The notes beneath the pieces are model-generated. The model was not told the DNA's origin. It made no database searches and saw only the letters and a list, made by a program, of their open reading frames with translations. Shown one piece after another: positions 1,821 to 59,303 of a stretch of 64,000 nucleotides of DNA. Both the position numbers and the translations under genes were made by a program. Position 1 is the first letter of the stretch; each line of letters starts with the position of its first letter. Source of the DNA: an uncultured Gammaproteobacteria bacterium (GTDB taxonomy: Bacteria; Patescibacteriota; Microgenomatia; UBA12405; JAHJSD01); NCBI GenBank assembly GCA_964428655.1, contig CAYRYE010000001.1, positions 9,328 through 73,327 on the forward strand, given 5' to 3'.

Positions 1821-1878
<58 letters not shown>

Positions 1879-2459: not shown

Positions 2460-2510
2460 CTCTGTCTGTTTGTTAGCAAATGGTTTCAGGTTCTATTTCA
2501 CTCCCCTCCC

Positions 2511-2541
<31 letters not shown>

Positions 2542-3159
2542 ATGCGCTATCGGTCAACAAGAGTATTTAGTCTTGGAGGAGTGGTTCCCCCAGATTCCCC
2601 CGATTTTAATCGGGATACTCAGGAATCCCGCTACCAACCTAATATAATTTCGAATACGGGGCTTTCACCCTCTTTGACGATTCATTCCAGAATCTTCTTC
2701 TATTAATTCGGTCAGGATAAAGCGGAACCCTACAACCGGTCGAAAATTCGACCTTTGGACTATTCCCGTTTCGCTCACCGCTACTAAGAGAATCACTGTT
2801 GTTTTCTTTTCCTTTGGGTACTGAGATGTTTCAGTTCCCCAAGTTACTCTCCCGATATCCTTACGGGTATCGGGATATCTTGTATTACTACAAGATGGGT
2901 TTCCCCATTCGGAGACCATCGGATCAAAGGTTGCTGGCACCTCCCCGATGAGTTTCGCCGCCTTCTGCGTCCTTCATCAGCTCTTGTCACCAAGGCATTC
3001 ACCATTTGCCTTAATACTAAACCTTCTTACCCCCGATATGTGCAGGCACTATCGGAGATAAACCCGGTTGACAACTTGATTTTCAAATCAAATTGAAACC
3101 TTAATCAATTGTTAAAGTGCAATTAAATTAAATAAAATTTATTTTTCAATTCGCTCAAA

Positions 3160-12389: not shown

Positions 12390-13520
12390 ATGAAGTTAAA
12401 ACTACTCCAAGAGGATTTGAATAAAAATTTATCAATAACTTCTCGTTTCGTTGCTTCTAGACCTCAATTGCCTATTTTAGCTAATATTCTCTTTTCCGCA
12501 GAAAAAAATAATAAATTATTCTTAACAGCGACTAATTTGGAAATAGGTATTTGTTGTGGGTTAGGCGCCAAGGTTGAAACGACTGGCAAACTGGCTATTC
12601 CTGCTAAAGAAATTAGCGAGTTTGTTTCCTATCTTTCTGTGGGAAAATTGACCTTAGAAAGTAAAAAGAAAACCCAAATTAAGATAATATCTCCTAGCGG
12701 CGAAAGTCTTTTTACCGGCATGGATCCGGCGGAATTTCCTAAAATTCCTAGTATTAATGAAGATGAGGCCGTTTCTTTGCCTATGAAAGGAATGATTGAA
12801 GCTGTTAATCAAGTAGGCTTCGCAGTGGCTGGTGATGATACGAGGCCTGTGTTGGGGGCAATCAATTGGCAATTTACCACTAGCGGTTATCGTATGGTAG
12901 CCACTGATGGTTATAGATTATCTTTAAAGAATGTTTCTGGAGTTAAGATTAAGGTTAATGCCAAGAATGGCAAAACAACCTTTTTGATTCCTGCTAGAAG
13001 TTTAGCTGAAATTGTTCGTTTAGCAGCTGGTCAAGATAAAATTAAAGTTGGTTTAACTAAGGATGGCAATCAGGTTATTTTTCTTCTTCCTGATCTTCAG
13101 CTGACTTCTCGATTAATTGAAGGTGAATTTCCTGACTACGAGAAGATTATTCCTAGTCAAACAAAAACTAAAGTTGTATTAGAAAAAGAAGAGTTTTTGC
13201 AGGCGGTTAAAATTGCCTCAGTTTTTGCCAGAGAATCGGCAAATGTAGTTAAATTTAGTTTAAAAGACAACCGGATGACTATTTCAGCTAACGCTCCTAG
13301 TGTTGGGGAGAATAAAACCGAAGTTGGCGCTAAGATTGATGGACCAAAACTAGAAATAGCTTTTAATTTCAGATTTATTTTAGATTTTTTAAATGCGGTT
13401 CCCGTAGAAGAAGGAGAGATAAATCTGGAATTTACTGAATCTTTAACTCCTGGTCTTTTTAAAATTCCTTCTGATTCTTCTTGGCTTCATTTAATTATGC
13501 CGGTAAGAGTGGATTTATAA
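12390..13520 (+). CDS. dnaN: DNA polymerase III beta sliding clamp
   Basis: 376 aa with a three-domain clamp pattern and conserved ...ATDGYRL... motif; immediately downstream of dnaA. Confidence 0.9.
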   Translation: MKLKLLQEDLNKNLSITSRFVASRPQLPILANILFSAEKNNKLFLTATNLEIGICCGLGAKVETTGKLAIPAKEISEFVSYLSVGKLTLESKKKTQIKIISPSGESLFTGMDPAEFPKIPSINEDEAVSLPMKGMIEAVNQVGFAVAGDDTRPVLGAINWQFTTSGYRMVATDGYRLSLKNVSGVKIKVNAKNGKTTFLIPARSLAEIVRLAAGQDKIKVGLTKDGNQVIFLLPDLQLTSRLIEGEFPDYEKIIPSQTKTKVVLEKEEFLQAVKIASVFARESANVVKFSLKDNRMTISANAPSVGENKTEVGAKIDGPKLEIAFNFRFILDFLNAVPVEEGEINLEFTESLTPGLFKIPSDSSWLHLIMPVRVDL

Positions 13521-13945: not shown

Positions 13946-16579
13946 TCAGTGACAGCGGATAAATTCAGCCACGCTGGCAACTGGTACGCTCTTAAAATTA
14001 ATTCTACCAGATCCGCCCCAGGCCTGAGCCACTTGAACCATACCGCTATCTAAATCAGCGCCGATGACGATAGCGATGTGACCATATGCTCCTGATGTCC
14101 AAATAGTGTTATCGCCAATTTGAATAGCAGCCATGTTTTCTCCTGGCGAATATACATGAGTACATTGGCCACAACCGCTTCCAACAAAGTGTTTAGCGTC
14201 ACCACAAGCGGGTAGATTTTGTTCAACGGCTCGTTTAAAACCAACACACTGAAGAGTTCCATCCCAAGCAAGTGATATTTTAAAAGTATCTATGATTCTC
14301 TCGGCAGAACCAATCAATTGTTGTAAGGTTTGGCTAGCTCGAAGACAGATAGCAGTCATGTTCATAGAGTTGTTAGTAACCGCCGAAATATTGCAGTCTT
14401 GAAGAATAAAGTTAATATAACAGGCAACTTTTGCCGATTGATTGTTTATACTTTGACAATAACCAACATCGCTTTCAAAAGGAAGCATGTCTCTTATTTC
14501 ACCAATAAGTTCTTCTTCGGTAATTCCTCTTTCAATTGGCGGAGCTAAAGTTTGGTTATACATTTGCATTGGTCCCAAGTTAATGAAAAACAAAACACCA
14601 AAAACGAGAACAAAAATAAGAGCAAGAGGGACAACAGTAGTAACGGTTCCTATGGCAAGGATAATGCCGACCGGGTAATAAATAATGTCTTTGAACCATT
14701 TCAGGACAGGAATTTTGCCAAGAATATCACGGAGTTTAGTTGATAGACCGAGAGTAAAGAAGTTTAAAACCTCAGGAATTTTAAGTTTTTCAGCAATCTT
14801 TTTGATTAGACTCCAGCCCAATCTTAGAGCTTCTGCTCCCAGCCAAATAAGAATACTGGCCCCACCAGTGGGGATGCCTAAAGCGGTGGCCAAAGCAACG
14901 GCAAGAGTTTCTCCGGCAAGGAGTTCTGCTGCTTTTTCAGCTGTCACAAGAACTCCTTTTTCGGCCAGTCTTTTAACTATTTTTTCAGCGGCGTATTTGT
15001 AAAACTTTGTTTTTATTTTCCCAGTAAGTTTTCCAGTAAGTTTTTTAATCGGGATTTTCTTTTTAACCCATCTGTTAAATCTACTTTTGGCTATGTGCTG
15101 ACCAAAATCGGTAACGGGTCTAACAGTTTCCATAATCGCATAGTTAGGGCTTTCTGAAACTTGGCAGGCGGTGCCACCAGGCTTATAAACAGTATCCCAA
15201 TAAGCGATTGCCGGATCAGAAGAGATTGTTTTGGCTGCTGGTTGTTCTTGGACATAATCGTAGAATTTCTGCCAAACATCAACTAACTCTTGCAATTTTG
15301 GTGTTTGGGCAAGTTGGGTGATGGTATATAAAATTGCTGGGGGGTTATTTTTTCCTGGCCTAAGAACATGGAAAATATTGATTGGTTTTGCAGGCAGGTT
15401 ATTGGTTTGTTCAACAAGAGTTTTTTGCCGAGGCATAGGCGTAACTGCCACCGCTCTGCTAAAGTAAGTTGGCAGGCTGGTGAGGGTTTGAACAGCAAGC
15501 TCTACAGCCGGAGTGACTGTTTCCGCGGATGGATCTAAACCAATGTTTGCCAGGTGTCCAATAACGATTTGCTCAACATTATTTTGGGCGTCTTGCCTGA
15601 TTTGTGTTGGCGTCATGTCTTTGGCAATTGCTTTAAGGATAGGAGTAACAGAAGTAATCATTCCTTGTACTAATTGAGTTCCTTCTTTTTCAGTTAGAGA
15701 AACATTGTGGTTTGACAAGACAATGGCAATAGTTGGAGTAGCGATTAGCGGGGCTATTCCTGACTGATCGGCTGTTTCATGAGCAGTTAGTGTTAAAGCA
15801 GCGGCAATTTGATTTAAGGCTTCAGGTGGTAAAGTAGTCGTGATTGATTCTGACAGTGATTGGGGTAGTTCTGGTGAAGGATTGGCGATGCGATAGGCAA
15901 CAGCCGTTGTGGCAGTTGAAAATTGATTTGTTTTGGCTAGTTTCCGGACTTGATCAACAATTGTTTTTCTGATTTCTGGTTGGGGAATAACTCCTTTGAT
16001 TGTGGTTTGTTGTACAGTGCCTGTTTGAAAAGAAGCAAATACCACTTCTTCTGTTTGAGTAGTGGTTAAAGGAATATTATCAACACTTGTGACGGTTGTT
16101 ATTTGTTCAGTTCTCTGTTCTAAAATTCGAGAGATAACCTTGTCTATTTCTGTTTGACTTAAACCATATCTTTCTAAAATTTTACTTAATTCTGTTTTGT
16201 CTCGGATTTCAGCAACAAGTCTTTCTCTTTCTTCTAAAGCTTGAAGCATTTCTTTAAGATTAGAAGGCACTTCACCATGAGTAATAGTATTGCCAGTGAT
16301 AGGCATTTCTTGATAAAAGAAAGCAGAAATTCTATGGAAGAAATCATAAAGATTTTCTTGTTCTTCTAAAGTAAGACCAAAAAGCTGTTCCAGACGAGCA
16401 AAAAGTTGGTTCAGTTGTTCATCAGGCCAACCCAGTTTTTTGAGCGCTTCTTGTTTGTTTGGAGTATCTGATACTCGAGTCGAGAGATCAAAAAAATATT
16501 CAGCGAGAGCGTTGTTTCTTGGTTCAGTAAGCTGGACTCTTGTTTTGGTTTGACTAATTGCCTCTATCTCTCTGGCCAT
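13946..16579 (-). CDS. Large multi-domain T4SS-associated protein: N-terminal Q/T-rich region, central polytopic membrane segment, C-terminal CHAP-type peptidoglycan hydrolase
   Basis: C-terminus carries C...GQCTHV...YGHIAIVIG, matching the CHAP Cys/His catalytic pattern. Several TM helices around residues 560-640. Resembles VirB1/VirB6-like components of Gram-positive conjugation systems. Confidence 0.55.
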   Translation of the reverse strand: MAREIEAISQTKTRVQLTEPRNNALAEYFFDLSTRVSDTPNKQEALKKLGWPDEQLNQLFARLEQLFGLTLEEQENLYDFFHRISAFFYQEMPITGNTITHGEVPSNLKEMLQALEERERLVAEIRDKTELSKILERYGLSQTEIDKVISRILEQRTEQITTVTSVDNIPLTTTQTEEVVFASFQTGTVQQTTIKGVIPQPEIRKTIVDQVRKLAKTNQFSTATTAVAYRIANPSPELPQSLSESITTTLPPEALNQIAAALTLTAHETADQSGIAPLIATPTIAIVLSNHNVSLTEKEGTQLVQGMITSVTPILKAIAKDMTPTQIRQDAQNNVEQIVIGHLANIGLDPSAETVTPAVELAVQTLTSLPTYFSRAVAVTPMPRQKTLVEQTNNLPAKPINIFHVLRPGKNNPPAILYTITQLAQTPKLQELVDVWQKFYDYVQEQPAAKTISSDPAIAYWDTVYKPGGTACQVSESPNYAIMETVRPVTDFGQHIAKSRFNRWVKKKIPIKKLTGKLTGKIKTKFYKYAAEKIVKRLAEKGVLVTAEKAAELLAGETLAVALATALGIPTGGASILIWLGAEALRLGWSLIKKIAEKLKIPEVLNFFTLGLSTKLRDILGKIPVLKWFKDIIYYPVGIILAIGTVTTVVPLALIFVLVFGVLFFINLGPMQMYNQTLAPPIERGITEEELIGEIRDMLPFESDVGYCQSINNQSAKVACYINFILQDCNISAVTNNSMNMTAICLRASQTLQQLIGSAERIIDTFKISLAWDGTLQCVGFKRAVEQNLPACGDAKHFVGSGCGQCTHVYSPGENMAAIQIGDNTIWTSGAYGHIAIVIGADLDSGMVQVAQAWGGSGRINFKSVPVASVAEFIRCH

Positions 16580-16586: not shown

Positions 16587-18467
16587 TTAAACTTCTACTT
16601 TTATCGGTTGAATTGTTGGTCTTGATTTGGGTGATGGTGGGGTAGTTTTTTCCCTTTTCATTTCTAATAATTCTTCCGGGTTAGAGGTAATTACTTTGTG
16701 TTCGTTGGGAGAAGCAATGACTCGAATAGCCACATGGTTTTTGCCGGCAAAAAAGATTCCTTCACCGATATCAGCTCCCAAAAGCAATTGTCTTTCCCCC
16801 TCAGACAAGTAGAAAACATCAGTAACTTGATCCATGGCTGCCGGGTGCTGTTTGAGCAGTATTTGGATTGAAGAGTTAGTGACGATAGCCTTGCCGTAGT
16901 CAGATTGCAGGAAATCCTGGACATCTTGGGTAATGGTAGTAACGCCAAGATAATATTTCCTTGCCCTTTTGGCTAAGCTGTAAAGGAACTGAGCAGAATC
17001 TTTGTATTTCATTAGATACCAGGCCTCATCAACGACCAAAATGCGTCGTTTCATTTCTCGTCGGATTTTATTCCAAATAAAATCTAGGATAATATACATT
17101 GCTGTTGGTCGAAGGGCTTCCTCAAGATCTCGAATACCAAAGACAACAAATTTGTTTTTAATGTCAACATTAGTTTGAGAGTTGAACAAACCAGCGAATG
17201 AGCCTTTAATGAATTTTTCTAATCGGGCTGCTAAAGAAGCGGCCTTAGGATCTTCCATACCAATTAAGACTTTATAGAGGTCTTCAATTAAGGGCATTTC
17301 TTTTCCTTTTTGAGACTCTGGGTCAAGAGTGATACCTTTCATTTTGTAAGATTGAATTAGGGCTCGATCCAGCAGAGCCTCTTCTTCCGGATTTAACTCA
17401 CCCATAATTACCTTGAATAAGCCGTGAAGAGCCAGAATTTTGCGACCTAATTCATTTTCACTGTTTTCCTGGGAAGAAATTTCTAAATCGAAAGGATTTA
17501 TTTTTGAAGGCGAGTTAAAGCTAAAAGTGATATATTGGCCGCCAACAGCTTTGGCCAAATCCTGGTATTCGTTTTCCGGGTCAATGACCATGATTTCTGT
17601 ACCAAACATTAAAGATCGGAAAACTTCCAGTTTTATCATATAAGATTTTCCTGCGCCCGATTTAGCAAAAACGATAGAGTTCGCGTTTTCCAGGGAGAAT
17701 CGGTCAAAAATAACTAGTGAGCCATTGTGTTCGTTGATGCCGTACATGATTCCTTTGTCGTCAGAAAGATCAGAGGAGACAAAAGGAAAGGTTGTTGCCA
17801 GTGAAGTAGTGTCCATATTGCGAGTAATTTTGAGCAGATCTTGACAAATTGGCAAAGTGGTTTTAAACCCATTTTCCATTTGCAGAGTGGCATGTTTGGG
17901 GATAATTAAAAGTGATCCTAAGTTTGATTCAAGTTCCTTAGTGGTCTGGTTTAACTGGTCAATTGATTTAGCTCCAATAGTGATATAGAGACCGAGCTGG
18001 AAAAATTTCTCAATACCCTTAACCAGCTCTTCTTGCAAGGTAAGTGCATCCTCAAGTTTAGCTTTAGTAGCCGGATTGATTACTCTGCCTCGTTGAATGT
18101 CTGAGGAGAGTTCAGCTTCCATTTCAGCAATTTTGCGACGGAGATCGTCTAAGATTTCTTTACCTTCAGTGGGATAGATATACATGGAAGTATCTAGAGA
18201 GTGGTCGAAGTTGATTAACGATGAAAGCCAATTGGCGGAGACAAACCTGGGGTAGTTAACAATAAAAAGAGTTCGATAGTAACGATTATTAATTCTAACC
18301 CAATCAAAATCGACTTCAATAGCTGAAGGGGCGACAATGTCTTTTACAGAAACCAACCCAGCAGAAAACGAAACAGGTTTAGTTTTGTCAGTTGGATTAA
18401 CTGTTGTTTTTTGGTTTTTGGTTGACTTCTTTACTGGTTTGATTTTGTTGAAAAAATCTAGGATCAT
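16587..18467 (-). CDS. virB4: VirB4/TrbE-like type IV secretion ATPase (core and C-terminal ATPase part)
   Basis: DWVRINNRYYRTLFIVNYP... WL..L entry motif typical of Firmicutes-type VirB4; Walker A AKSGAGKSYMI; Walker B ILVVDEAWYLM. Confidence 0.85.
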   Translation of the reverse strand: MILDFFNKIKPVKKSTKNQKTTVNPTDKTKPVSFSAGLVSVKDIVAPSAIEVDFDWVRINNRYYRTLFIVNYPRFVSANWLSSLINFDHSLDTSMYIYPTEGKEILDDLRRKIAEMEAELSSDIQRGRVINPATKAKLEDALTLQEELVKGIEKFFQLGLYITIGAKSIDQLNQTTKELESNLGSLLIIPKHATLQMENGFKTTLPICQDLLKITRNMDTTSLATTFPFVSSDLSDDKGIMYGINEHNGSLVIFDRFSLENANSIVFAKSGAGKSYMIKLEVFRSLMFGTEIMVIDPENEYQDLAKAVGGQYITFSFNSPSKINPFDLEISSQENSENELGRKILALHGLFKVIMGELNPEEEALLDRALIQSYKMKGITLDPESQKGKEMPLIEDLYKVLIGMEDPKAASLAARLEKFIKGSFAGLFNSQTNVDIKNKFVVFGIRDLEEALRPTAMYIILDFIWNKIRREMKRRILVVDEAWYLMKYKDSAQFLYSLAKRARKYYLGVTTITQDVQDFLQSDYGKAIVTNSSIQILLKQHPAAMDQVTDVFYLSEGERQLLLGADIGEGIFFAGKNHVAIRVIASPNEHKVITSNPEELLEMKREKTTPPSPKSRPTIQPIKVEV

Positions 18468-19182
18468 CTTGTTTTAGCTTTACTCTTCCTTTAATAATAG
18501 CTCCTTGTTGATTTAAAGCGTCAATATTATCAACCAGACTTGATTCCTGATTATAAATCTGATAGAAAAGCTGGATTAACTCTTTGCTTTTAAGCTGTTT
18601 AATTGATAAACCCAGTCTACCAAAAAGACGAATTAAATGTTCTTTTTTGGGTTCTAAAGTTGCCTTAGCTCTTTCCAAGATCTTTTCTTTAGCCATAGGT
18701 AGTGATTTGTTTGTTTGTTTGTTTAATAGTGAGAGTGGGAGAGGCAGACTAGTTTTAACCGCTGTTTGGACTCCTAGTTCGACTGAAAAGAAAGGGATAA
18801 TTATATAGAAAGATTTGGCTAAAACGTTGTTTTTCTTAACTACTTCCTCGACGAATTGGCGATAAAGGATAATCTGTTTTTTCAACAGTGGTTCGTTGAT
18901 TTTAGCCTCTTGTTTTTTGAGACGATTAACATAATTGGAAACATCCTTTAAAGTGGATCGGATCACGATTTGAACTGGAAAAGTAAGTGAGTTGAGCATG
19001 GCGGCGTAAGTGTAGATCATTGCCTCTTGTTCTTTTTCAGAAAGAAGGTCAAAGTTAACTGATGAAGTTTCTAAAATCATAATACAAGACCCATTTTTTA
19101 AAATGGTTAAATCTTCCTTGATGTCTTCGATAGGGAGATGTTCTTGAGTGGTTCCTTTAATAGCAATTTTGTTTAAGTCCAT
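18397..19182 (-). CDS. VirB4 N-terminal-domain-like protein; likely the 5' portion of a split or frameshifted virB4
   Basis: ILETSSVNFDLLSEKEQEAMIYTYAAMLNSLTFPVQIVIRS resembles the N-terminal region of Gram-positive VirB4 ATPases. It overlaps the next ORF by 71 nt in a different frame. Confidence 0.5.
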   Translation of the reverse strand: MDLNKIAIKGTTQEHLPIEDIKEDLTILKNGSCIMILETSSVNFDLLSEKEQEAMIYTYAAMLNSLTFPVQIVIRSTLKDVSNYVNRLKKQEAKINEPLLKKQIILYRQFVEEVVKKNNVLAKSFYIIIPFFSVELGVQTAVKTSLPLPLSLLNKQTNKSLPMAKEKILERAKATLEPKKEHLIRLFGRLGLSIKQLKSKELIQLFYQIYNQESSLVDNIDALNQQGAIIKGRVKLKQDDPRFFQQNQTSKEVNQKPKNNS

Positions 19183-19188
19183 GGGAGC

Positions 19189-20037
19189 TTAGCTCTTGGT
19201 TGTAATTTTTAACGGTGAGATTACTTTGCCTTCTACCTTGATTTTGATTATATCAAACTGATAGCTTTCTTTTTCTGCCAATATTAGGTATTCACCATTG
19301 GCCAGAGGAGTGGCGGTTTTGAATTGTCCTAATTGATTGGTTCGTAAGGCTCGAACCGGGTTTTCAGAGATGTCTTGAATTTCAATAATTACATCTTCCA
19401 TGATTTTTCCGTCTTGATTTGTAACCATACCAACAATAATATTAGGGGTTGTTGGTGGTTGGGGCATAGGTATTTCCCCGAAAGCAGCTTCAATAGTTGG
19501 TTTCGGTGTCACCACAGTTTTAGGAATGTCGATTTCTACTCTAGGAGTGATGGTTGTTTTTCTTTCGGGTGGCTTTTGAATTTGAACAGGAGCAGTAACT
19601 TCTTTTTTCTGATCAGTCTTTTTTTGTTTTTTGGGAAGCGAGGCAAGAAACTCTTCTAATTGAGGTTTTTTTGATATAATGGGCTCTTCTTCTTCTTCTT
19701 CTTCCTCCTCCTCTTCTTTAAAGCTCGTGTCAAAGATATCTAGTGTGGTTAGTTGTTTTTGCCAGAGATAAATTGTTGGCGAAAGGACGCTTTTGACAAA
19801 AGCAAAAATCCAGACCTCTAGTGGTCTTTCATTGACAGGTAAGAAAGCTAGGGCGATTCCAAGGAGGCCAAAACTTAAAACTAAGGGCCATTTTATAATA
19901 AAAGATAGATGACTGGAGTAAAAAATAAAGGCAATAACTAGACCACCGGCAACCTTAAAAAACTGCTTCAAAGTCATATTTCCTACTAGTCGAAACTCGT
20001 AGGAAGAAATTTGTTGTGGGATGGGATGTTGTTCCAT
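19189..20037 (-). CDS. PrgI-family (VirB3-like) membrane protein with poly-Glu linker and C-terminal beta-sandwich (carboxypeptidase-regulatory-like) domain
   Basis: N-terminus ...ISSYEFRLVGNMTLKQFFKVAGGLVIAFIFY plus a second TM helix matches the PrgI/VirB3-like pattern. It sits directly upstream of virB4, as in Gram-positive T4SS. The EEEEEEEEEEE run is encoded by a GAA/GAG repeat at about 19690-19725. Confidence 0.6.
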   Translation of the reverse strand: MEQHPIPQQISSYEFRLVGNMTLKQFFKVAGGLVIAFIFYSSHLSFIIKWPLVLSFGLLGIALAFLPVNERPLEVWIFAFVKSVLSPTIYLWQKQLTTLDIFDTSFKEEEEEEEEEEEPIISKKPQLEEFLASLPKKQKKTDQKKEVTAPVQIQKPPERKTTITPRVEIDIPKTVVTPKPTIEAAFGEIPMPQPPTTPNIIVGMVTNQDGKIMEDVIIEIQDISENPVRALRTNQLGQFKTATPLANGEYLILAEKESYQFDIIKIKVEGKVISPLKITTKS

Positions 20038-21097: not shown

Positions 21098-21112
21098 AGG
21101 ATATTTTTTATA

Positions 21113-22588
<1,476 letters not shown>

Positions 22589-23477: not shown

Positions 23478-23780
23478 TTAGAGAATTGTGAGACCGAAAA
23501 TAACTTCGACGATTTGGACAATCCAGTAGGCGGAAAAGACTACTAAAAAACCAATAATGGCAAAGACAATTTTATTGGTTCCTTCTTTAATTCCATTTGG
23601 TTCTCCTCCGGAAGTTAGAAGCTGAAACCCTCCCAATAAAAGATAGACAAACATAGCTAAACCAGCAAAGACCAGAGCATATTTTAAAGTTTCGGAAGCA
23701 ATTCCTCCTAAAGTAGAAACTTCTGGCTTTATACCAACAATTTTAGGATCAGGAATGGTAACTTGGGCAAAAACCTTCAC
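23478..23780 (-). CDS. VirB2/TrbC-like two-helix pilin-type protein (paralog 1 of 8)
   Basis: About 100 aa: hydrophobic helix, GG...SGGEPNGIKEGTNKIVFAIIGFLVV, second helix. N-terminus MKVFAQ.. nearly identical to the paralog at 59707..60045. Confidence 0.55.
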   Translation of the reverse strand: MKVFAQVTIPDPKIVGIKPEVSTLGGIASETLKYALVFAGLAMFVYLLLGGFQLLTSGGEPNGIKEGTNKIVFAIIGFLVVFSAYWIVQIVEVIFGLTIL

Positions 23781-24088
23781 TTTTGTAACCCTGGGATATG
23801 TAAAATGTCAACCCCAATTAGTCTTAATAGAAACAGAGAGAAGATAGCGAGTAGTAAACCAGTAATAGCACTAGTAATTGTTTCTTGCCCTCCTTTGATT
23901 TTTTGAGGATCACCTGCTGAAGTAATAATTAAGATGCCGCCGTAGATTATTAATAAAAAAGCTATACCTCCAATAGCTCCTATCAATCTTGGTAAGAACC
24001 ATTCGATGAAATTATTTGGAGAGTTAATAGGAATACAACCAATAGCGGTATTGATCCCATCTTCTCCACTGCAAAAAATTTGAGCCAT
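23777..24088 (-). CDS. VirB2/TrbC-like pilin-type protein (paralog 2 of 8)
   Basis: ..LLIIYGGILIITSAGDPQKIKGGQETITSAITGLLLAIFSLFLLRLIGVDILHIPGLQK, the same architecture and C-terminal (I/L)L.IP motif as the 58.9-61.1 kb array. Confidence 0.55.
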   Translation of the reverse strand: MAQIFCSGEDGINTAIGCIPINSPNNFIEWFLPRLIGAIGGIAFLLIIYGGILIITSAGDPQKIKGGQETITSAITGLLLAIFSLFLLRLIGVDILHIPGLQK

Positions 24089-24145: not shown

Positions 24146-26002
24146 ATGGACTTAATGTATGCGGAAGTGAAGCAAATTCTAGGTACTCCCAGTGATTCCT
24201 CTTGGAGTCAGGTTCATCATTTTCTACCCAAGGAGGAGAAAAAGTGGGAAAAAAAGGGAGAATTAATTCTCTTGGTTAGTCTTGGGACCGCGAGCGAAGA
24301 TCAGAAGATATTCAGCTTAGGCAGAGAAATGCTTTCTCGTTTTCACGAAGAGTACTACGGTAATCCTACCAGAAAGCCAATGATTTCCCTAAAGGAGGCT
24401 TTGTCTAGGGTAGGTCAAGAGAAATCGCAATATTTTGAAAATCCTAAAGAAATTTCTTTGCTAGCTTTAGTGATTTGGAAAAATATTGCCTACTTAGGTA
24501 TTTGGCATCAGGGCAAGATTTTGTTCCGTCGTAACGGTAAATTAACAACATTGATTCAGGGCGAAATTGGTCAAGTTAAAGTAGCCTCCGGATTTATTCA
24601 GGCAGGCGATGTTTTTCTTTTAGCAACAGACAGTTTTTTTGAAAATATTCCCAAGGGAATGGTTACTGCCTCTTTGAACAGTGAGGATTTAGAGACCGTT
24701 GTTGAAGTATTGGCTCCCGTTGTTCATGCTCGAGAAAAGCAGGGTAATTTGGCAGCGGTTTTAGCAAAAATAACTGATTCGCCCTTAATCGGGCCAGAAC
24801 CCAGCGAGGAGAAAGAAGTTTCGAAAGGAGCGTTACTAGCAAGATGGGGAGAGGCTTTATTAAAAAGGCTAAAAAAATTAAAGTCTTTAAAAAAAGTTAA
24901 GTTAAATTTTTCCCGTTGGCTAAAAAACATTCACCCAAAAACTTCAGCTTTGACAGTGGCTCTGGGCTTTTTACTGCTTTTAATTGTTTCTGTTTTTTTA
25001 GGCTGGCAAAAGAAAACTAAGCAGAAGCGGTTAACAGAAATTGACAAGTTGTCATCTTTGATTGAAGAAAAACTGAAAACAGCGGTAGTAATTAAAAACC
25101 TGGATCTGGACAATAGTTTAAAACTGACTAATGAGGCTAAAGATGTTGTTGAGCAACTTAGGATATTGGATGCTGCTAAAGCAGATTCTTTTCAGACTAA
25201 AATTGACTCTTTGGCTTCAGTTTTAGGTGGAGAGGCAGTGTTTCCTCAACTTTATTATGACCTTAATCTCATTGGTGAAAATGTTAGCGTCAGAAATGCT
25301 TTTAGCCAAACAGAAGAAACAATCGTTCTTGATGGAGAGGGTAAGAGGCTAATCAGTTTAGATCTAGAAAAAAAATCAGGGGAAGTTATTGCTGGCGGAG
25401 AAAAATTGGCTGACCAAAGATTAGTGGTTAGTTCCAGTAATCGTGTTTACACCATTGACGACAGTATTTACTTGCTTAAAGGTAAAAAGTTGGAGATTGT
25501 TGATCAATTGGGAGAAAATGATCAAATTATTGCCGCTGATAGCTGGTTAGGAAAACTTTATCTTTTGGATAAAAACAGCAAACAGATTTGGAAATATCCT
25601 GTTGTAGCTGATGGTTTGGGATCGAGAAAGGCTTGGTTTAAAACCTCGCCAAATTTTGATTTTGGTTCAATTGTTGATATGGGTATTGATGGCCATATTT
25701 GGTTGCTTTTAGAAAGCGGACGGATTTATAAATTCTTGTCTGGCGGACAAGATAAGTTTGGTCAGCAATTGCCTTCTGGCGTTGGTAAGGCAAGTTTTTT
25801 AGCAGTAGCTCAAGAGAGCGAAAAGATTGTTTTTTGGGATCAAGGAAAGAAAATGATTTGGGTTTTTAATAAAAAAGGAGAGTTTATTTCCAGAACTCCT
25901 ATTGCTCTAGACCAGATCAGTGATTTGACAGTTTCTCCAAAGGGAGACAAAGTTTTTCTTTTTGCTAAGGATAAAATTTACCTTCTTTCAATCAAAGATT
26001 AA
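24146..26002 (+). CDS. Hypothetical single-pass membrane protein; N-terminal cytoplasmic domain possibly a degenerate PP2C-like fold, C-terminal extracellular beta-rich domain
   Basis: A central TM helix TSALTVALGFLLLLIVSVFLGW. N-terminal ...GDVFLLATDSFFE... is weakly PPM-like. No confident family assignment. Confidence 0.35.
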   Translation: MDLMYAEVKQILGTPSDSSWSQVHHFLPKEEKKWEKKGELILLVSLGTASEDQKIFSLGREMLSRFHEEYYGNPTRKPMISLKEALSRVGQEKSQYFENPKEISLLALVIWKNIAYLGIWHQGKILFRRNGKLTTLIQGEIGQVKVASGFIQAGDVFLLATDSFFENIPKGMVTASLNSEDLETVVEVLAPVVHAREKQGNLAAVLAKITDSPLIGPEPSEEKEVSKGALLARWGEALLKRLKKLKSLKKVKLNFSRWLKNIHPKTSALTVALGFLLLLIVSVFLGWQKKTKQKRLTEIDKLSSLIEEKLKTAVVIKNLDLDNSLKLTNEAKDVVEQLRILDAAKADSFQTKIDSLASVLGGEAVFPQLYYDLNLIGENVSVRNAFSQTEETIVLDGEGKRLISLDLEKKSGEVIAGGEKLADQRLVVSSSNRVYTIDDSIYLLKGKKLEIVDQLGENDQIIAADSWLGKLYLLDKNSKQIWKYPVVADGLGSRKAWFKTSPNFDFGSIVDMGIDGHIWLLLESGRIYKFLSGGQDKFGQQLPSGVGKASFLAVAQESEKIVFWDQGKKMIWVFNKKGEFISRTPIALDQISDLTVSPKGDKVFLFAKDKIYLLSIKD

Positions 26003-27723
26003 TGAAAAGAAAGATTTTCGTTTTTATCTTGCTTCTATTTTTTTTACCATTTTTGGCTTTTGCTGTAGAGTGTCGTAAAGATTGTGGAACAATTGAGGAA
26101 TGTGGCCGTTTTATTGATGAATGCTCCGAAGTTTTAGGTCTTTATGAAAGCGCTAATTTAAAAAATAGGGAAACTTTGACTGAGTTTGAAACTCAAGTGA
26201 AGAGATTTGAGCAGATGATTAAATCTGCGGCAAAACAGATAAATGATTTATGGGAAAATATTATTGATCGGGAAGCGGATTTAGAGATTCAAAGAATTCT
26301 TTTAAACGAGCGAATCCGCCGCCTCTATATTCATCAGCGGGGTTTTTCTACCTTGACTATTCTTTTTGCTTCTCAAAACAGCGGCCATTTTATTCGCACT
26401 CTTTTCTATCAGCAATTAGTGGCCAATGAGGATAAAAAAGCAATTGAAGATTTGACCCAGCAGATAGGCAAACTTCAAGAAGACAAAGATAGACTGGAAA
26501 AACATCAAATTTGGTTAACGGCCAAGAAAAAAGAGGCGGAAAAACAAGCTGCTTTTTTTAGAGAAGAAGTCGAAGAAGCGGAGGGTTACATTAGTGTCCT
26601 TTCTTCAACTATCAGTAGCTTAACTACCAAACAAAAGAATCTCTTGACTGCCCGATCAGGGACTTTTACCAGTAGCGTTGGTGAAGTTCCTATTAGTAGT
26701 ATTCCTTGTTCTGGGCCTTCAGGCAGCCCTACTTTTTGTGATCCTGGTGGCGGAGATTGGTTTGGAGCTTTTTCTTTTGGCGGTTGGACTCATCGTAAAG
26801 GTATGAGTCAATACGGGGCTAAAGGTCAAGCTGATGCGGGCCAGAATTGTCAACAGATTCTTCAAGCTTATTACGGCAAGACATCAATTAATAAAGATAC
26901 TAACGGCGCTATTTCTGTTTCCGGTTATGGCAATCTTAATTTTGAAGATTATTATTTGATGGGAATTGCTGAAATGCCTTCTTCCTGGCACAAGGAAGCC
27001 TTAAAAGCTCAGGCAATCGCCGCCAGAACTTATGCTTATCGGTATAAAGTTGAGGGAAAAACCATTTGCACTACCGAGTCTTGCCAGGTTTTTTCCAAGA
27101 GTAAAGCGGATCAGGTTTCTGGAAACTCTGGTCATGCTTGGCATCAAGCGGTTAAAGAAACCAGAGGTCAAGTCATTGAAGATGTGGTTACTTATTATTC
27201 TTCAACTGCCGGTGGCTATTTGACTACTTCTGGTTGGGACACTACCGATGGTCAAGGTGGAGAAGGTTTTGCCAGTCGGGCCTGGGAAAGTAAAGCTGGT
27301 TCGCCGTGGTTTTATAGCAGTTGGTTTACTCAAACTTATAATTCCGGTTCAGCCAAGTGCGGCCGGTCTCATCCTTGGTTAAATTCTGAAGAAATGGCTG
27401 ATATTTTAAATGCCTGGCTGGTGGGCAATGATGAAAGAATTTTGCCGGTAACTATTAATCAATGTACTATTGGTGGAGTTACTGGCAATCCTTATTCTAT
27501 GGATGAATTGAGGAACAAAGCTAATGAGAAAGGTGGTGCTTTCACCAGTGTTAGCACAGCTTCGGTTGTTTACGGTAACGATGGAGCAACTAATTCAGTT
27601 ACTTTTAACACTAATAAAGGTTCGATAACTGTCTCGGGATCAGAGTTTAAGCAAGCTTTTAATCTCCGCGCTCCCGGCTACATTGCCATCCGCAGCCCAT
27701 TGTTTAATATTGAAAAAAAGTGA
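26002..27723 (+). CDS. Secreted coiled-coil protein with C-terminal SpoIID/LytB-family domain (peptidoglycan remodelling)
   Basis: Signal peptide; about 200-aa coiled coil; then GMSQYGAKGQA..., ALKAQAIAARTYA and ...YSSTAGGY motifs characteristic of SpoIID/LytB. Confidence 0.7.
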   Translation: MKRKIFVFILLLFFLPFLAFAVECRKDCGTIEECGRFIDECSEVLGLYESANLKNRETLTEFETQVKRFEQMIKSAAKQINDLWENIIDREADLEIQRILLNERIRRLYIHQRGFSTLTILFASQNSGHFIRTLFYQQLVANEDKKAIEDLTQQIGKLQEDKDRLEKHQIWLTAKKKEAEKQAAFFREEVEEAEGYISVLSSTISSLTTKQKNLLTARSGTFTSSVGEVPISSIPCSGPSGSPTFCDPGGGDWFGAFSFGGWTHRKGMSQYGAKGQADAGQNCQQILQAYYGKTSINKDTNGAISVSGYGNLNFEDYYLMGIAEMPSSWHKEALKAQAIAARTYAYRYKVEGKTICTTESCQVFSKSKADQVSGNSGHAWHQAVKETRGQVIEDVVTYYSSTAGGYLTTSGWDTTDGQGGEGFASRAWESKAGSPWFYSSWFTQTYNSGSAKCGRSHPWLNSEEMADILNAWLVGNDERILPVTINQCTIGGVTGNPYSMDELRNKANEKGGAFTSVSTASVVYGNDGATNSVTFNTNKGSITVSGSEFKQAFNLRAPGYIAIRSPLFNIEKK

Positions 27724-34334: not shown

Positions 34335-34349
34335 TATTGATGACCAAGT

Positions 34350-34421
34350 GGCAGGGGAGGGAGTCGAACCCTCGGCCTTCGCCTTATGAAAGCGCTGCTC
34401 TAACCACTGAGCTACCCTGCC
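34350..34421 (-). tRNA. tRNA with CAT anticodon (elongator Met or lysidine-modified Ile2)
   Basis: Reverse complement GGCAGGGTAGCTCAGTGGTTAGAGCAGCGCTTTCATAAGGCGAAGGCCGAGGGTTCGACTCCCTCCCCTGCCA. 7-bp acceptor, T-arm GAGGG/TTCGACT/CCCTC, anticodon loop TTCATAA. Confidence 0.85.
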
Positions 34422-34497
34422 TTCGCAACCTCACTGCTTCGGTAGGCAGGTTTGCCTTTTTTTATGGCTTGCTTGCCATAGTTTTAGCGAAGGTGGG

Positions 34498-34571
34498 TGG
34501 ACCCGAGCGGAGTCGAACCGCTGACCTTCCGGATGCAAACCGGGTGCTCTAACCAACTGAGCTACGGGCCC
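34498..34571 (-). tRNA. tRNA-Ala (TGC)
   Basis: Reverse complement GGGCCCGTAGCTCAGTTGGTTAGAGCACCCGGTTTGCATCCGGAAGGTCAGCGGTTCGACTCCGCTCGGGTCCA. G3:U70 Ala identity pair; anticodon loop TTTGCAT. Confidence 0.9.
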
Positions 34572-34623
34572 TCCGATTCGGAGGGCTTGCCCGCCAAACC
34601 GGAGGGCGGGCCCTTACAATTTG

Positions 34624-34693
34624 TTGCGGGGCCAGGAGTTGAACCTGGTCTGTGAGGTTATGGGCCTCACGTGCAGCCGTACACCACCCCGCG
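34624..34693 (-). tRNA. Initiator tRNA-fMet (CAT)
   Basis: Reverse complement CGCGGGGTGGTGTACGGCTGCACGTGAGGCCCATAACCTCACAGACCAGGTTCAACTCCTGGCCCCGCAA. C1xA72 mismatch at the top of the acceptor stem; CGCGGGG start identical to E. coli tRNAfMet; anticodon loop CCCATAA. Confidence 0.85.
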
Positions 34694-35132: not shown

Positions 35133-35996
35133 ATGAATTCAGAACTGGCTTTGGAAAATGCAATTGGGAAATTTATTTCTCATTTAGAATCTTTAAAGCG
35201 CTCCAGTAATACGATTGTAGCATATAGGGGCGACTTGAGTCAGCTTGTTGATTTCCTGAAAGGGCAAACAATAGATTTACTAACTCAGGTTGAAACTAGC
35301 CATATTGAAGAGTTTAAAAAGTACTTGACCAAGAAAGGCTATACCCCAAAATCTATCTCCAGGAAGTTAAATTCAGTAAAAAGCCTTTTTAGGTTTTTGG
35401 TTGAGGAGGGAATTCTAGATAGAGATCTTTCCAGAGCAGTTAAACACCCTAAGATCAAAAATGACTTGCCTCGGATACTAAAATCCATAGAGTATCGAGC
35501 CTTACGAGATGTTTGTCGTCATGACAAAAGGACTTTAGCTATTACAGAGCTGATGCTCCAGGTAGGTTTAAGAATTAGCGAGGTGGCCAGTTTACAGTTA
35601 GAAGATGTTGAGGCTGATAACTTGATAATTAGGGCTTATGAAAGCCATTCGCAGAGAAAAGTGCCTTTAAATCGGGCCGTTAAAGAAGCAATAGGAACCT
35701 ACCTAAAAGAACGTTATCAATCAAGATATAAGTTTTTGTTTGTTACTAAAACCGGAAAACAACTCTTGGTAAGAAATATTAGAAGTATTCTTAATCGCTA
35801 TTTTGATAAGGCAGGTCTGCAGGGTGTGAAAGTAAATGATCTTCGCAACACTTTTATTGTTGAACAGTTGTCAGCGGGGGTACCCTTGGACATAATTAGT
35901 AAAATCGTTGGTCACAAAAGGCTTTCCACCACGGAAAGATACTTAAACATGGTTGAAAAGTCAGAAAAAGAAGGAATCAGTCTCAAAGAATTGTAA
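35133..35996 (+). CDS. xerD: Tyrosine site-specific recombinase (XerC/XerD family)
   Basis: Core-binding N-domain; catalytic ...LRISEVASLQLEDV..., HKRLSTTERYLN (the R..H..R..Y tetrad is visible); 287 aa, typical Xer size. Confidence 0.8.
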   Translation: MNSELALENAIGKFISHLESLKRSSNTIVAYRGDLSQLVDFLKGQTIDLLTQVETSHIEEFKKYLTKKGYTPKSISRKLNSVKSLFRFLVEEGILDRDLSRAVKHPKIKNDLPRILKSIEYRALRDVCRHDKRTLAITELMLQVGLRISEVASLQLEDVEADNLIIRAYESHSQRKVPLNRAVKEAIGTYLKERYQSRYKFLFVTKTGKQLLVRNIRSILNRYFDKAGLQGVKVNDLRNTFIVEQLSAGVPLDIISKIVGHKRLSTTERYLNMVEKSEKEGISLKEL

Positions 35997-36011: not shown

Positions 36012-38354
36012 TCATACTTGGGAACGACGAGTGATTTCTGCCTCTACCACTGAAGCAGGCTGGCCATATTTTAAGACGCTTAATCTTTTAATAGTTTTAG
36101 CCAATTTGGGATTTCTTCTTTTTTTCTCAATTTCTATATCCTTAGTGGTATCCATGGAAAATGGCAGTACGGGCTCGTTATCGATAACTGTTTTTATGTA
36201 AGCATGGAACCGTTCTACGTTAAGAAGATCTTGTTCGCTAAAGACAGGTTGGAATTCACGAGCCAAGTAATTAGCATCAGAAACACCAACCTGAAAAGAC
36301 ACCACTGTTCCCACATTGCCGAAAATGGCATTTTTAACCTCTTCTTCCATTTGGCCAATAAATTGGTTGGCTACGGTAAGATTCAGGCGATACTTTCTGG
36401 CCTCGGAGAGAATTTGGGCAAAATCAGGGGTAGCAAAGTTTTGAAACTCATCAACATAAAGATAGAAATTGCGCCTCTGATCTTCCGGTATATCTTGGCG
36501 GCTCATGGCGGCCATAAGGATTCTGGGAACTAGGATTAGTCCCAAGAAGGAAGAATTTTCTTCGCCGATTTTTCCCTTAGCCAAGTTAATAATTAAAATT
36601 TTGCCCTCGTCCATTACCTTGCGGAAGTCAAAAGCTGATTTTGATTGACCGATGATGTTGCGCATCATTTTGTTAGTTACAAATCGGCCGAATTTGGAAA
36701 CAATGTAATCCAATGTTTCAGATTTGTGAAACTCAGCAGTATGGGCGATTTGTTCGGTCCAGTATTCTCTAACAATAGGGTCTTTTACTTTTGGTAGAAT
36801 TCGTTGTAGATATGGCCCGCCTGGATTTTGAAGAATTTTTACCACTTCCATAAAAGTTGTTCCTGGCACACTCATGGCAGTTAGCATGGCGTTTCTGATC
36901 GCATGTTCAAACCGGGGGCCAACAATACCGGTTTTATACGGATCGTAAAGTTTGTACATCAGATTGATTATTGCGGCAGAGACGAAGTGTTTTTGATCTT
37001 CAGTTTCTACTTCTAAAAGGTTAAGTCCAATTGGTCTTTCTGTTTCTGAAGGATCAAAATAAATTACATCTTCGGCCCTCTCGGGAGGGATGTATTCTAG
37101 AATTTGTTCGGCCAAATCATGGGGGTCGATTAAACAAATCCCTCTACCTGCTTTAATATCCTGGATAAGCATTTCCTTCATTAACTCTGTTTTGCCTGCG
37201 CCTGTTTTGCCGATAATGTAGAAATGTCTCTGCCGATCTTTTTCCTGGATATAGATTGGCTTTTCCACTCCTCGGTAACCGCTTTTACCTAAATACAAAC
37301 CAGATTCGGGAAGATTGGACGGCGGCGGAGCGGGTTTAGCTTTCAGACAGTAAACATTAGGAGTTTCTACTGTTTTATTGGGGAGATGGAAGATTGAAGC
37401 CAGTTCTTCGCTGTTTAAAATGGTTTTTATATTTCGCCAGATAATTGGTTGATAGCGGTAAATAAAGTCAATCATAAAAGAATAACGGAAACGGATTTTC
37501 TTTTCCGAAAAACCATTCCAAGGAGATTCAAATTGAGCAAAACTTGATTTGATGTTGTTGAGCTTGGCTTTAGCAATATCCATTGTTGGAGCGCAAACAA
37601 CAATTCTGATTGAAGTTTCGAATCCTGGTTTACTGCACTTGGACTCGATCGCTTCCAAAGTTCGAGCGTCCACTTTAAAACTGGCTTTTTCTGGGTCAGC
37701 CTCTTGTTTTTTGGTGTCACTGACATATGTTTTGCCTGACTTTTGCCAGTTGATATCAGTTGGGCTTATTAAAATCTGGATGGCCGCTCCCTCGTTTTCT
37801 TCTAATTTAGCCATAGCGGAAGTGATTGCTGAAAGAGGATCAGTGGGAAGATCTTTGTAGGTTTTTAAAGGATAAAAGGATTCTTTTTTAAACTTTAGCC
37901 AGGCGTAGCTAATTTTTCCGCTTTTGGAAAAGATATTATACTCATCGACTTCTTTTATCTCGGCATCAGGGTAGCCGCCATGAATTTGCCGCTCTACTAA
38001 TTCGCGCAGTTTTTGAGAGCAGGAGACAAAGAATTTAATTTCTCCATCAGTACTGACGATCTCAAAAGAAATATGGGGTTGACTTTTAAGGAATTTAAAT
38101 TTACCTCCGGTTTTGATTGAATAGAGAGAGGCCATTATTTGTTCCATGGCATCGATTTTCGTCTCATTGTCTCGGGGAACAGCGATTCTAAACAGGACGG
38201 ACTTTAAAGCCTCTTCTTCTCTTTTACGCCATCGCCACCAAAGAACAAAACTATAAAATAATAATCCAAGACCCAATAGTGTTATAACGGCAATTAAAAA
38301 GAGAACAATATAATAGAATAAGGTACTAGTTAGTTGGTTAACAGTTTGATCCAC
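36012..38354 (-). CDS. virD4: VirD4/TraG/TraD-family type IV coupling protein (FtsK/HerA-superfamily ATPase with N-terminal TM anchor)
   Basis: N-terminal TM helices; Walker A YIIGKTGAGKTELM; Walker B LYVDEFQNFATPDF; long N-terminal periplasmic/cytoplasmic domain as seen in other CPR-type coupling proteins. Confidence 0.8.
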   Translation of the reverse strand: MDQTVNQLTSTLFYYIVLFLIAVITLLGLGLLFYSFVLWWRWRKREEEALKSVLFRIAVPRDNETKIDAMEQIMASLYSIKTGGKFKFLKSQPHISFEIVSTDGEIKFFVSCSQKLRELVERQIHGGYPDAEIKEVDEYNIFSKSGKISYAWLKFKKESFYPLKTYKDLPTDPLSAITSAMAKLEENEGAAIQILISPTDINWQKSGKTYVSDTKKQEADPEKASFKVDARTLEAIESKCSKPGFETSIRIVVCAPTMDIAKAKLNNIKSSFAQFESPWNGFSEKKIRFRYSFMIDFIYRYQPIIWRNIKTILNSEELASIFHLPNKTVETPNVYCLKAKPAPPPSNLPESGLYLGKSGYRGVEKPIYIQEKDRQRHFYIIGKTGAGKTELMKEMLIQDIKAGRGICLIDPHDLAEQILEYIPPERAEDVIYFDPSETERPIGLNLLEVETEDQKHFVSAAIINLMYKLYDPYKTGIVGPRFEHAIRNAMLTAMSVPGTTFMEVVKILQNPGGPYLQRILPKVKDPIVREYWTEQIAHTAEFHKSETLDYIVSKFGRFVTNKMMRNIIGQSKSAFDFRKVMDEGKILIINLAKGKIGEENSSFLGLILVPRILMAAMSRQDIPEDQRRNFYLYVDEFQNFATPDFAQILSEARKYRLNLTVANQFIGQMEEEVKNAIFGNVGTVVSFQVGVSDANYLAREFQPVFSEQDLLNVERFHAYIKTVIDNEPVLPFSMDTTKDIEIEKKRRNPKLAKTIKRLSVLKYGQPASVVEAEITRRSQV

Positions 38355-43366: not shown

Positions 43367-43370
43367 TACA

Positions 43371-44681: not shown

Positions 44682-44683
44682 AT

Positions 44684-59300: not shown

Positions 59301-59303
59301 TGT

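Follow-up and report, generated by a model that had tools for sequence, protein, structure and literature searches.

Eight colinear classes of T4SS pilin genes of family PF18895 in an origin-proximal chromosome segment of a Microgenomatia genome

Arrays of pilin genes linked to type IV secretion systems (T4SSs) were described earlier in Patescibacteria, where a search of 3,035 genomes with the families PF04956 and PF18895 recovered 441 arrays of 2-11 pilin genes from 383 assemblies. These arrays were commonest in Microgenomatia and Saccharimonadia, had a mean within-array identity of 25%, and belonged to T4SSs often located beside dnaA (Quinonero-Coronel et al., 2025, PMC12102498). In the same work, T4SSs of monoderms were considered to be generally without pili, and the variety of pilins was proposed, by analogy with Bartonella and Anaplasma, to aid adaptation to different hosts (PMC12102498). 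Moreover, in the Saccharibacterium Southlakia epibionticum ML1 a pilin series inside the T4SS cluster was essential in transposon sequencing (Tn-seq) (Wang et al., 2023, PMC10633639). Here, we analyzed a 64,000-nucleotide stretch of a Microgenomatia genome (assembly GCA_964428655.1, contig CAYRYE010000001.1, positions 9,328 to 73,327; hereafter the window), which holds exactly eight paralogous two-helix open reading frames (ORFs) of 100-140 aa on the minus strand, two at 23478-24088 and six at 58929-61084 (pil1 to pil8; Table 1). Pilin arrays in Patescibacteria being already published, the window set is a further case of that phenomenon; however, published work treats the copies as variable, whereas the genes studied here fall into eight fixed orthologous classes (c1 to c8, numbered as the genes) with a conserved order.

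In its general features the set is like the published arrays, since it belongs to PF18895, is made of tandem divergent copies with about 25-30% identity, and accompanies a T4SS that has VirB4 and PrgI/VirB3, is located close to dnaA, and has no relaxase in its vicinity. Unlike them, it is split into two plus six genes and detached from the T4SS core.

The number of eight genes is exact for the window and far above chance. An unfiltered search of every one of the window's 566 stop-to-stop ORFs with a hidden Markov model (HMM) built from the eight proteins retrieved only these eight (E values from 7e-46 to 3.5e-28), and the runner-up had E = 0.64, in agreement with a preliminary description of this DNA that had reported two plus six paralogous genes of one architecture. 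All pilin genes have the same orientation and are packed with overlaps or small gaps, which is consistent with co-transcription. A promoter-like site precedes pil2 (24124-24096), and promoter and terminator scans were overall at chance level. Within the six-gene array, pil8 is the first gene and pil3 the last. The starts MKVFAQ (pil1) and MKIFAQ (pil5), pointed out in the preliminary description, were confirmed, with no room for an upstream extension of either ORF. The ORF of pil6 is open to 60470, with position 60434 being the start in the public gene call, and the public call of pil4 begins at 59651, giving 115 aa. The frame of pil8 is open to 61375, 97 codons before the probable start, and overlaps a solute-binding-protein gene on the opposite strand; most likely, pil8 starts at 61084 and the upstream extension is a chance open frame, not coding.

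The evidence for the identity of the family is consistent across the set. PF18895 (T4SS_pilin) was the top and only significant Pfam family for the eight proteins (E values from 1.8e-10 to 6.8e-4). Against its gathering score of 26.6 bits, pil1 to pil4 scored above and pil5 to pil8 below (E <= 7e-4), and the orthologs of these last four in other genomes carry PF18895. The eight genes are genuine members of the known T4SS pilin family that accompanies the T4SS in the ultra-small Patescibacteria. In public annotation, PF18895 appears in three of the six genes of the window array, and orthologs in several classes (those of pil5, pil7, and pil8), c7 and c8 especially, are often devoid of a precomputed PF18895 hit or have one described as weak or faint. 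Because these classes often escape PF18895, Pfam-based surveys undercount the genes per array.

A second family, NCBIfam NF045849 (Mbov_0395 family pilin-like conjugal transfer protein), matched all eight proteins weakly (14.2-28.4 bits; E values from 9e-7 to 0.03), with alignments spanning 58-72 of the 80 model positions. All scores lie below its 40-bit equivalog cut-off, so that the eight proteins, though related to this family of Mycoplasma integrative and conjugative elements (ICEs), are not members of it. Both share a monoderm context of the mating-pair formation (MPF) type MPF-FATA, which fits the ancestry proposed for the Patescibacteria T4SS, but NF045849 proteins serve in conjugation of the ICEs, which are mobile elements, whereas the window genes are chromosomal and multi-copy.

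Regarding classical conjugative pilins, the PF04956 (TrbC/VirB2) search that had been suggested as a check gave a single match in an hmmscan of the eight proteins, to pil6, at E 0.89. No conjugative pilin was found among PDB sequences with an all-class alignment profile. Comparison by hhalign of a 27-sequence family alignment with eight plasmid VirB2/TrbC proteins yielded a non-significant colinear alignment of 73 columns (probability 1.9%, E 0.025), from the leader end to helix 2, and the pil4 alignment gave nothing against VirB2/TrbC. Fold searches with the pilin hairpin, a generic fold, were uninformative. Neither sequence nor fold searches could demonstrate homology to classical VirB2/TrbC. 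Nevertheless, the eight proteins are like VirB2/TrbC (PF04956; the Agrobacterium tumefaciens T-pilin and TrbC of RP4) in size, in a pair of hydrophobic helices with a short charged loop between them, in a probable topology with both termini outside, in a variable leader with, in several classes, a site resembling P-A-x-A-Q (PAWAQ in pil4), and in the VirB3, VirB4, and VirB6-like genes found alongside. They are unlike them in the lack of significant sequence or profile similarity, in comprising eight obligate paralogs where the classical systems have a single major pilin and VirB5, in leaders of 3-6 residues in some classes, and in the monoderm envelope. The label of VirB2-like T4SS pilins is right in general terms; strictly, it stands for PF18895 membership and VirB2-like architecture, not for PF04956.

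Other kinds of small membrane proteins were also considered. A type IV (PilA) pilin was rejected, since the prepilin motif, searched for as a regular expression, was absent from the eight proteins and each has two transmembrane (TM) helices. A sortase-anchored or sortase-polymerized pilin was likewise rejected, as no LPXTG motif occurs in any of the eight and the proline tails follow the last helix at the extreme C-terminus; the C-terminal signal suggested earlier as possibly sortase-like is thus not of the LPXTG kind. As for a holin, the PHROG search returned no holin match (two hits, to unrelated families, E > 0.05), and there was no holin in the Pfam results. By contrast, the preliminary assignment to VirB2-like T4SS pilins, and not to type IV pilins, was borne out by PF18895 in all eight proteins, by the lack of a prepilin motif, and by a PrgI/VirB4 core, which in the window is 3.4 kb away from pil1 and in relatives forms one contiguous locus with the array.

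Comparison with related loci showed that each of the eight genes has its own orthologs, at its own place. Six loci with pil4 orthologs were retrieved, and each window pilin was compared with their products by best match. For pil8 to pil3, the best match in each of the six relatives was the gene at the same array position, with 66-187 bits, whereas the top-scoring paralog in the window reached just 52-65 bits. Among these six relatives, clear orthologs of pil2 and pil1 were present only in locus L007, as genes g1 (L007_g1, 115 bits with pil2) and g2 (L007_g2, 85 bits with pil1), directly upstream of the other six. In locus L007, all eight genes thus form one array, ordered c2-c1-c8-c7-c6-c5-c4-c3.

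This order was confirmed on a wider scale by building one HMM per class and scanning every ORF in 79 loci that the pil4-class alignment had located in GTDB species representatives; removal of duplicates of the training loci left 77. The pattern c8-c7-c6-c5-c4-c3 was observed in 37/77 loci and c2-c1 directly before these six in 24/77; in 1/77 locus the c2-c1 pair lay 9 kb after the six, and the rest of the 77 showed colinear fragments cut by contig ends. Every complete locus holds every class. Of the 24 loci with c2-c1 in front, 10 have a gene in the c5 slot that obtained similar scores with the c4 and c5 models. Changes in copy number were restricted to occasional tandem duplication or triplication of c4 (L006:8001-8836, L057:9501-10354, L072:9989-11423) and a tandem pair of c2 in L072.

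Paralogs in the window are 22-41% identical (mean 30%). The mean identity between window proteins and orthologs was 57% for c4, the most conserved class, 53% for the pilin domain of c2, 49% for c7, 46% for c3, 43% for c8, 39% for c5, 38% for c6, and 37% for c1. DNA comparison of the paralogs detected no similarity, repeats, or conversion tracts, save for the 29 nt by which pil7 and pil8 physically overlap, and recent duplication or gene conversion was rejected on this ground. From one-to-one positional orthology, paralog identities of 22-41%, and the lack of shared DNA, it follows that the copies are ancient, individually conserved, and colinear. Such old colinear copies indicate functional specialization inside one machine, and the pattern is that of an old fixed set of specialized subunits, not of a diversifying or recombining antigen family.

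The taxonomic range of the genes deserves mention. A word-indexed search with pil7 returned 35 relatives, one of them named Gottesmanbacteria, and an identical pil4 protein is on record on metagenomic contigs of 428-548 kb, its relatives being labelled Shapirobacteria, Woesebacteria, Microgenomates, and Patescibacteria. Many metagenome-assembled genomes among the GTDB representatives with this Patescibacterial locus (loci L008-L086) have the record title "uncultured Gammaproteobacteria bacterium", and one (L054) "Candidatus Methanoperedens sp."; these titles look like submission defaults or binning mislabels.

With regard to protein architecture, alignment of the eight sequences revealed a common core, consisting of a variable N-terminus, a helix ending in GG or AG, a polar loop of the form G(D/E)xxK...A, a second helix, and the motif G(I/V)(N/D)IL. 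Hydropathy profiles displayed two TM segments in each of the eight proteins. In the AlphaFold 2 (AF2) model of pil4, based on a 48-sequence alignment, residues 36-68 and 73-107 form a helical hairpin whose core has a predicted local distance difference test (pLDDT) score > 90, while the N-terminal 35 residues are ill-defined.

The segment after G(I/V)(N/D)IL is conserved within classes and lies at the extreme C-terminus, with no membrane anchor behind it. A conserved proline-containing tail had been described for the whole set. Indeed, proline occurs within the last 10 residues of most orthologs in c7 (100%), c4 (95%), c5 (89%), c2 (76%), and c3 (73%), but of fewer in c6 (55%), c8 (39%), and c1 (39%), and pil1 itself is without the tail, so that five of the eight classes can be said to carry it. 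The hydrophobic-x-(I/L)-P tail is class-specific, not universal. Its simplest reading would be a role in recognition between subunits, although it may also serve in processing, cyclization, or sorting.

The leaders are variable, with canonical signal peptides of 20-28 aa in some species and sequences as short as MKLAQ or MLAQ elsewhere, all of them ending in hydrophobic-A-Q; the shortest leaders, in some classes, have 3-6 aa. In VirB2, PAxAQ is the site needed for signal-peptide removal and cyclization (PMC4074166), and this motif was invariant in the VirB2 alignment built here. The leader of pil4 reads KPAWAQ|EP, and its PAWAQ fits the VirB2-type site. The pattern P[AVILS]xA[QA] was found in 42% of c4, 28% of c3, and 25% of c5 orthologs, versus about 1% of shuffled N-termini, and was rare in c1, c2, c7, and c8.

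The window copy of class c2, pil2, is a short form of 103 aa. Elsewhere, c2 orthologs have a Sec-type signal peptide followed by an exported N-terminal domain of 190-420 aa, with the pilin domain at the extreme C-terminus. In Woesebacteria-type relatives (L007:5217-6272, L016:6099-7529, L072:5013-7965, and others), this N-terminal domain had no Pfam match and one weak BACON-like hit. Additionally, conserved cysteine pairs occur N-terminal of helix 1 in c2 and c3. Since the signal peptide and exported domain of c2 and the cysteine pairs of c2 and c3 point to an N-terminus, and with it a C-terminal tail, on the outer side, we infer that both termini are probably external and the loop cytoplasmic, like in VirB2 and TraA; the charge bias of the proteins was ambiguous for topology. 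With this orientation, the C-terminal tail would be exposed on the outside of an assembly, beside the class-specific N-terminal segment.

In view of these data, we propose, with a probability of roughly 0.6, that the eight genes constitute the complete, non-redundant PF18895 subunit set of a chromosomal, origin-proximal, monoderm-type (MPF-FATA-like) T4SS that builds one heteromeric pilus or wall-spanning stalk. The proposal draws on family membership, the two-helix hairpin, and the eight classes in fixed order, as well as on the physical linkage, in relatives, with PrgI/VirB3, VirB4, wall-lytic enzymes, and a VirB6-like protein. Each pilin would be inserted in the membrane like VirB2 and TraA, with its N- and C-terminus outside and a cytoplasmic GDxxK loop, and the leaders of several classes would be cleaved off at a (P)-hydrophobic-x-A|Q site similar to PAxAQ of VirB2. 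The VirB4 ATPase and the VirB6-like platform would then extract the subunits and build the structure, with every class at its own position. Class c4, being the most conserved, is likely to be the bulk subunit, and c2, which has a large variable exported N-terminal domain in relatives, a distal or contact subunit, whereas the variable N-terminal segments and the hydrophobic-proline tails would make up the outer surface. As an analogy only, divergent paralog sets of one small fold in conserved order are also found among the minor pilins of type IV pili (T4P) and the pseudopilins of type II secretion systems (T2SSs; GspG-H-I-J-K), in which each paralog has a distinct place in one fibre; however, their fold and machinery are unrelated to those of the window proteins, which have no prepilin peptidase motif.

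The proteins could, instead, be T4SS components that form no extracellular filament but remain within the membrane or just above it, where they would be channel or stalk parts or would help assembly. The small pilin-like proteins of Mycoplasma ICEs, and possibly PrgF in Gram-positive systems, would be comparable. Several points favor this explanation and weigh against a pilus: NF045849, the closest named sequence family, comes from a Mycoplasma ICE, that is, from a wall-less monoderm with no pilus known; T4SSs of monoderms generally lack pili (PMC12102498); and, at the fold level, nothing sets a pilin apart from other membrane hairpins. Furthermore, eight fixed single-copy classes suit a complex of defined stoichiometry better than a long homopolymer. 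On the other hand, the class-specific N-terminal segments, putative disulfide pairs, exported c2 domains, and conserved, probably extracellular C-terminal tails suggest surface exposure, and the association with the wall-lytic enzymes SpoIID, SLT, and CHAP suggests a structure that crosses the wall; we consider a filament-free role less likely than the proposal above.

Interchangeable major pilins that allow variation in antigens, phase, or host range, a role suggested for the VirB2 paralogs of Bartonella and Anaplasma, would match the presence of several divergent tandem copies, whose mean within-array identity (30% here against 25% published) is of the same kind, and the versatility in host adaptation that has been speculated upon (PMC12102498). 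In this regard, the preliminary description had suggested antigenic or functional diversification and recommended a search for recombination signatures between paralogs, of which none was seen at the DNA level. Instead, one-to-one positional orthologs were present in every related locus with enough flank, with no class loss in the 77 loci, orthologs were more alike than paralogs, and there were no repeats or conversion tracts. Fixed order, ortholog identity above paralog identity, and the lack of conversion tracts argue against antigenic variation and for a heteromeric assembly. In addition, the genes are packed in one orientation, consistent with co-transcription, and the pilin series of Saccharibacteria was reported as essential (PMC10633639). 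The variable parts are the secreted protein encoded after c3, with a homolog in 16 loci, and the N-terminal domain of c2, not the pilin cores. On balance, a variation system is quite improbable. Finally, the notion of unrelated small two-TM proteins (holins, transporter subunits) that merely resemble pilins, to which sub-threshold matches to DctQ, TctB, and other hydrophobic families and the generic hairpin fold might lend themselves, is effectively refuted by PF18895 as the sole family with E < 1e-3 for all eight, by the lack of a PHROG holin hit, and by the conserved linkage to VirB4 and PrgI.

Table 1. Positions of the pilin genes, T4SS-related genes, and other features in the window (position 1 is its first nucleotide), with the signatures of the pilin classes.
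Feature	Position	Strand	Length and evidence	Class signature
23S rRNA gene	215-3024	minus		
dnaA	9849-11186			
dnaN	12390-13520			
877-aa membrane protein, candidate PrgK/VirB1-type wall hydrolase	13946-16579	minus	weak C-terminal CHAP-like domain, E 0.005, below cut-off	
VirB4-type ATPase	16587-18467	minus	P-loop_TraG 116.9 bits; AAA_10; CagE_TrbE_VirB	
261-aa conserved T4SS-core protein	18397-19182	minus	no Pfam match; between PrgI and VirB4 in relatives too	
PrgI (VirB3-like) family protein	19189-20037	minus	PF12666, 30.6 bits	
16S rRNA gene	21109-22588	plus		
pil1 (class c1)	23478-23780	minus	100 aa; PF18895 28.5 bits (gathering score 26.6); leader MKVFAQ; no C-terminal Pro tail	
pil2 (class c2)	23777-24088	minus	103 aa; PF18895 31.1 bits; two conserved Cys (C..G..T.IGCIP)	C..G..TAIGCIP, ILxLPGF
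618-aa membrane/beta-propeller-like protein and SpoIID-domain protein	24146-27723	plus	divergent from pil2	
tRNA-Met/Ala/Met cluster	34348-34693	minus		
Tyrosine recombinase	35133-35996	plus		
T4 coupling-protein-like ATPase	36012-38354	minus	TrwB_AAD_bind/TraG-D_C/T4SS-DNA_transf hits; remote from core	
7TM_transglut gene and three ATP-grasp (ATPgrasp_ST/RimK) genes	42524-46536	plus		
507-aa polytopic membrane protein, candidate VirB6 analogue	54589-56112	minus	next gene after 925-aa gene	
925-aa secreted, Cys-rich protein	56155-58932	minus	directly adjoins array; no TM bundle	
pil3 (class c3)	58929-59300	minus	123 aa; PF18895 28.5 bits; conserved Cys pair; F.IPGP tail	C...VATIQGFECLF, F.IPG
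pil4 (class c4)	59304-59669	minus	121 aa; PF18895 41.1 bits; PAWAQ in leader; LEIPSLQG tail	I.I.PGGQF, L.IP.L
pil5 (class c5)	59707-60045	minus	112 aa; PF18895 20.5 bits, E 5e-4; MKIFAQ leader, then conserved LENP.L; LP.L tail	LENP.L, LP.L
pil6 (class c6)	60048-60434	minus	128 aa from Met at 60434; PF18895 24.7 bits; N-terminal GLGPLGLEG	GLGPLGLEG
pil7 (class c7)	60421-60801	minus	126 aa; PF18895 20.1 bits; PPPGV..Y, AWAKIW, P.IYGP tail	PPPGV..Y, AWAKIWQS, P.IYGP
pil8 (class c8)	60773-61084	minus	103 aa; PF18895 24.3 bits; AG(N/S)xD loop, 2-residue insertion	
Solute-binding-protein gene	61162-62697	plus		

The genomic context is that of a Patescibacteria-style (Microgenomatia) origin-proximal chromosome, with tmRNA and SmpB, rnpA-yidC, dnaA, and dnaN. 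A monoderm-type T4SS core follows directly after dnaN on the minus strand (13.5-20.0 kb). In 12-21 related loci, PrgI, the 261-aa protein, and VirB4 share the strand of c3 and are encoded 6-9 kb downstream of it, and the pair of SpoIID and 618-aa genes is likewise divergent upstream of c2 in 26-31 related loci. The ancestral state is one large T4SS locus, and in the window genome this locus is in three pieces, with the T4SS core occupying 13.5-20.0 kb, the pil2-pil1 pair 23.5-24.1 kb, and pil8-pil3 together with the 925-aa and 507-aa genes 54.6-61.1 kb. The 16S rRNA gene sits between the core and the pil2-pil1 pair; it is unlinked from the 23S gene, about 18 kb apart, and the ORFs listed inside both rRNA genes are spurious.

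The coupling-protein-like ATPase adjoins a tyrosine recombinase and a tRNA-Met/Ala/Met cluster, and it could be the remnant of an integrated element or a detached type IV coupling protein. A cluster of one 7TM_transglut and three ATP-grasp genes lies about 12 kb from the pilin array, and in two relatives (L004:2259-6406, L006:2150-6424) this cluster is divergent and immediately upstream of the array.

Two genes follow the six-gene array on the same strand, the first of which, encoding a 925-aa protein, has its start overlapped by the stop of pil3 by 4 nt and is thus translationally coupled to it, and this arrangement is consistent with co-transcription of the array with the 925-aa and 507-aa genes. 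The preliminary description had placed the array next to a VirB6-like gene; the adjoining 925-aa gene is not VirB6-like, but the 507-aa gene, next in the same operon, is a candidate. The 925-aa protein had no Pfam, NCBIfam, or PDB match. By eye, its N-terminal region of about 300 aa, with FEPWNEP and LTETG, gives an impression of clan GH-A glycosidases. The slot after c3 is variable, since a homolog of the 925-aa protein was found in just 16 related loci, and in L006 the slot is occupied by an SLT-domain protein.

In 68 related loci, a homolog of the 507-aa protein is encoded after the array in the same orientation, and the family has at least 1,213 proteins, none of them annotated. Its sequence and AF2 model (pLDDT 81.7) display a bundle of long helices, polytopic by the measure of at least five TM segments. 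In a Foldseek search of the model against the PDB, the top six matches were all TrwI/VirB6 stalk chains of R388 (E values of 0.011-0.15, probability 0.87-1.00), with 13-18% identity and TM-scores of 0.18-0.39, and all later hits had a probability <= 0.33. Like R388 VirB6/TrwI (PDB 7o3v, 8rt9, 8rtd), which is the platform where VirB2 is thought to be assembled, it is a polytopic helical membrane protein encoded beside pilins; unlike it, it has no TrbL/VirB6 Pfam hit and is about 200 residues longer. At the sequence level, the evidence goes against a VirB6 identity, as there was no Pfam match in 24 orthologs, no NCBIfam match, and no hit among PDB sequences, and hhalign of the family with six MPF-T VirB6 proteins gave a probability of 0.35%. 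Considering the modelled fold, we regard the 507-aa protein as a candidate VirB6 analogue. In this context, VirB6 was reported as "scarce" in Microgenomatia, which was put down to extreme divergence (Quinonero-Coronel et al., 2025, PMC12102498), and the 507-aa protein might be this VirB6, which HMM surveys seldom detect in the group.

Beyond the window genome, we tentatively extend the proposal to Microgenomatia, and perhaps to Patescibacteria generally, although this wider version may well not hold. In these bacteria, the T4SS would build an appendage with no characterized counterpart, a heteropolymer or stalk of fixed composition made from eight ancient VirB2-like paralogs and nucleated on a highly divergent VirB6. 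Its c2 subunit would bear a variable distal domain, and the lineage-specific secreted protein of the neighboring slot would account for host specificity. Such a structure would be organized like T2SS pseudopilins or T4P minor pilins and not like a VirB2 homopolymer, and the pilin-like gene would have come with a monoderm system of MPF-FATA type, related to the Mycoplasma ICEs, and not have been borrowed from diderm T4SSs.

In brief, our analysis adds the fixed colinearity of eight classes, a candidate for VirB6, leaders of the PAxAQ type, and a connection with a family from Mycoplasma ICEs. The T4SS of Patescibacteria is the first shown to be essential for the growth of its bearer, and the pilin arrays are its oddest feature for a monoderm. 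If these arrays consist of eight conserved, colinear, non-interchangeable classes, the working hypothesis would shift from a variable surface antigen to a multi-subunit structure and, if true, would offer concrete targets, in which c4 would provide the bulk of the structure, c2 its distal part, and the 507-aa protein the platform.

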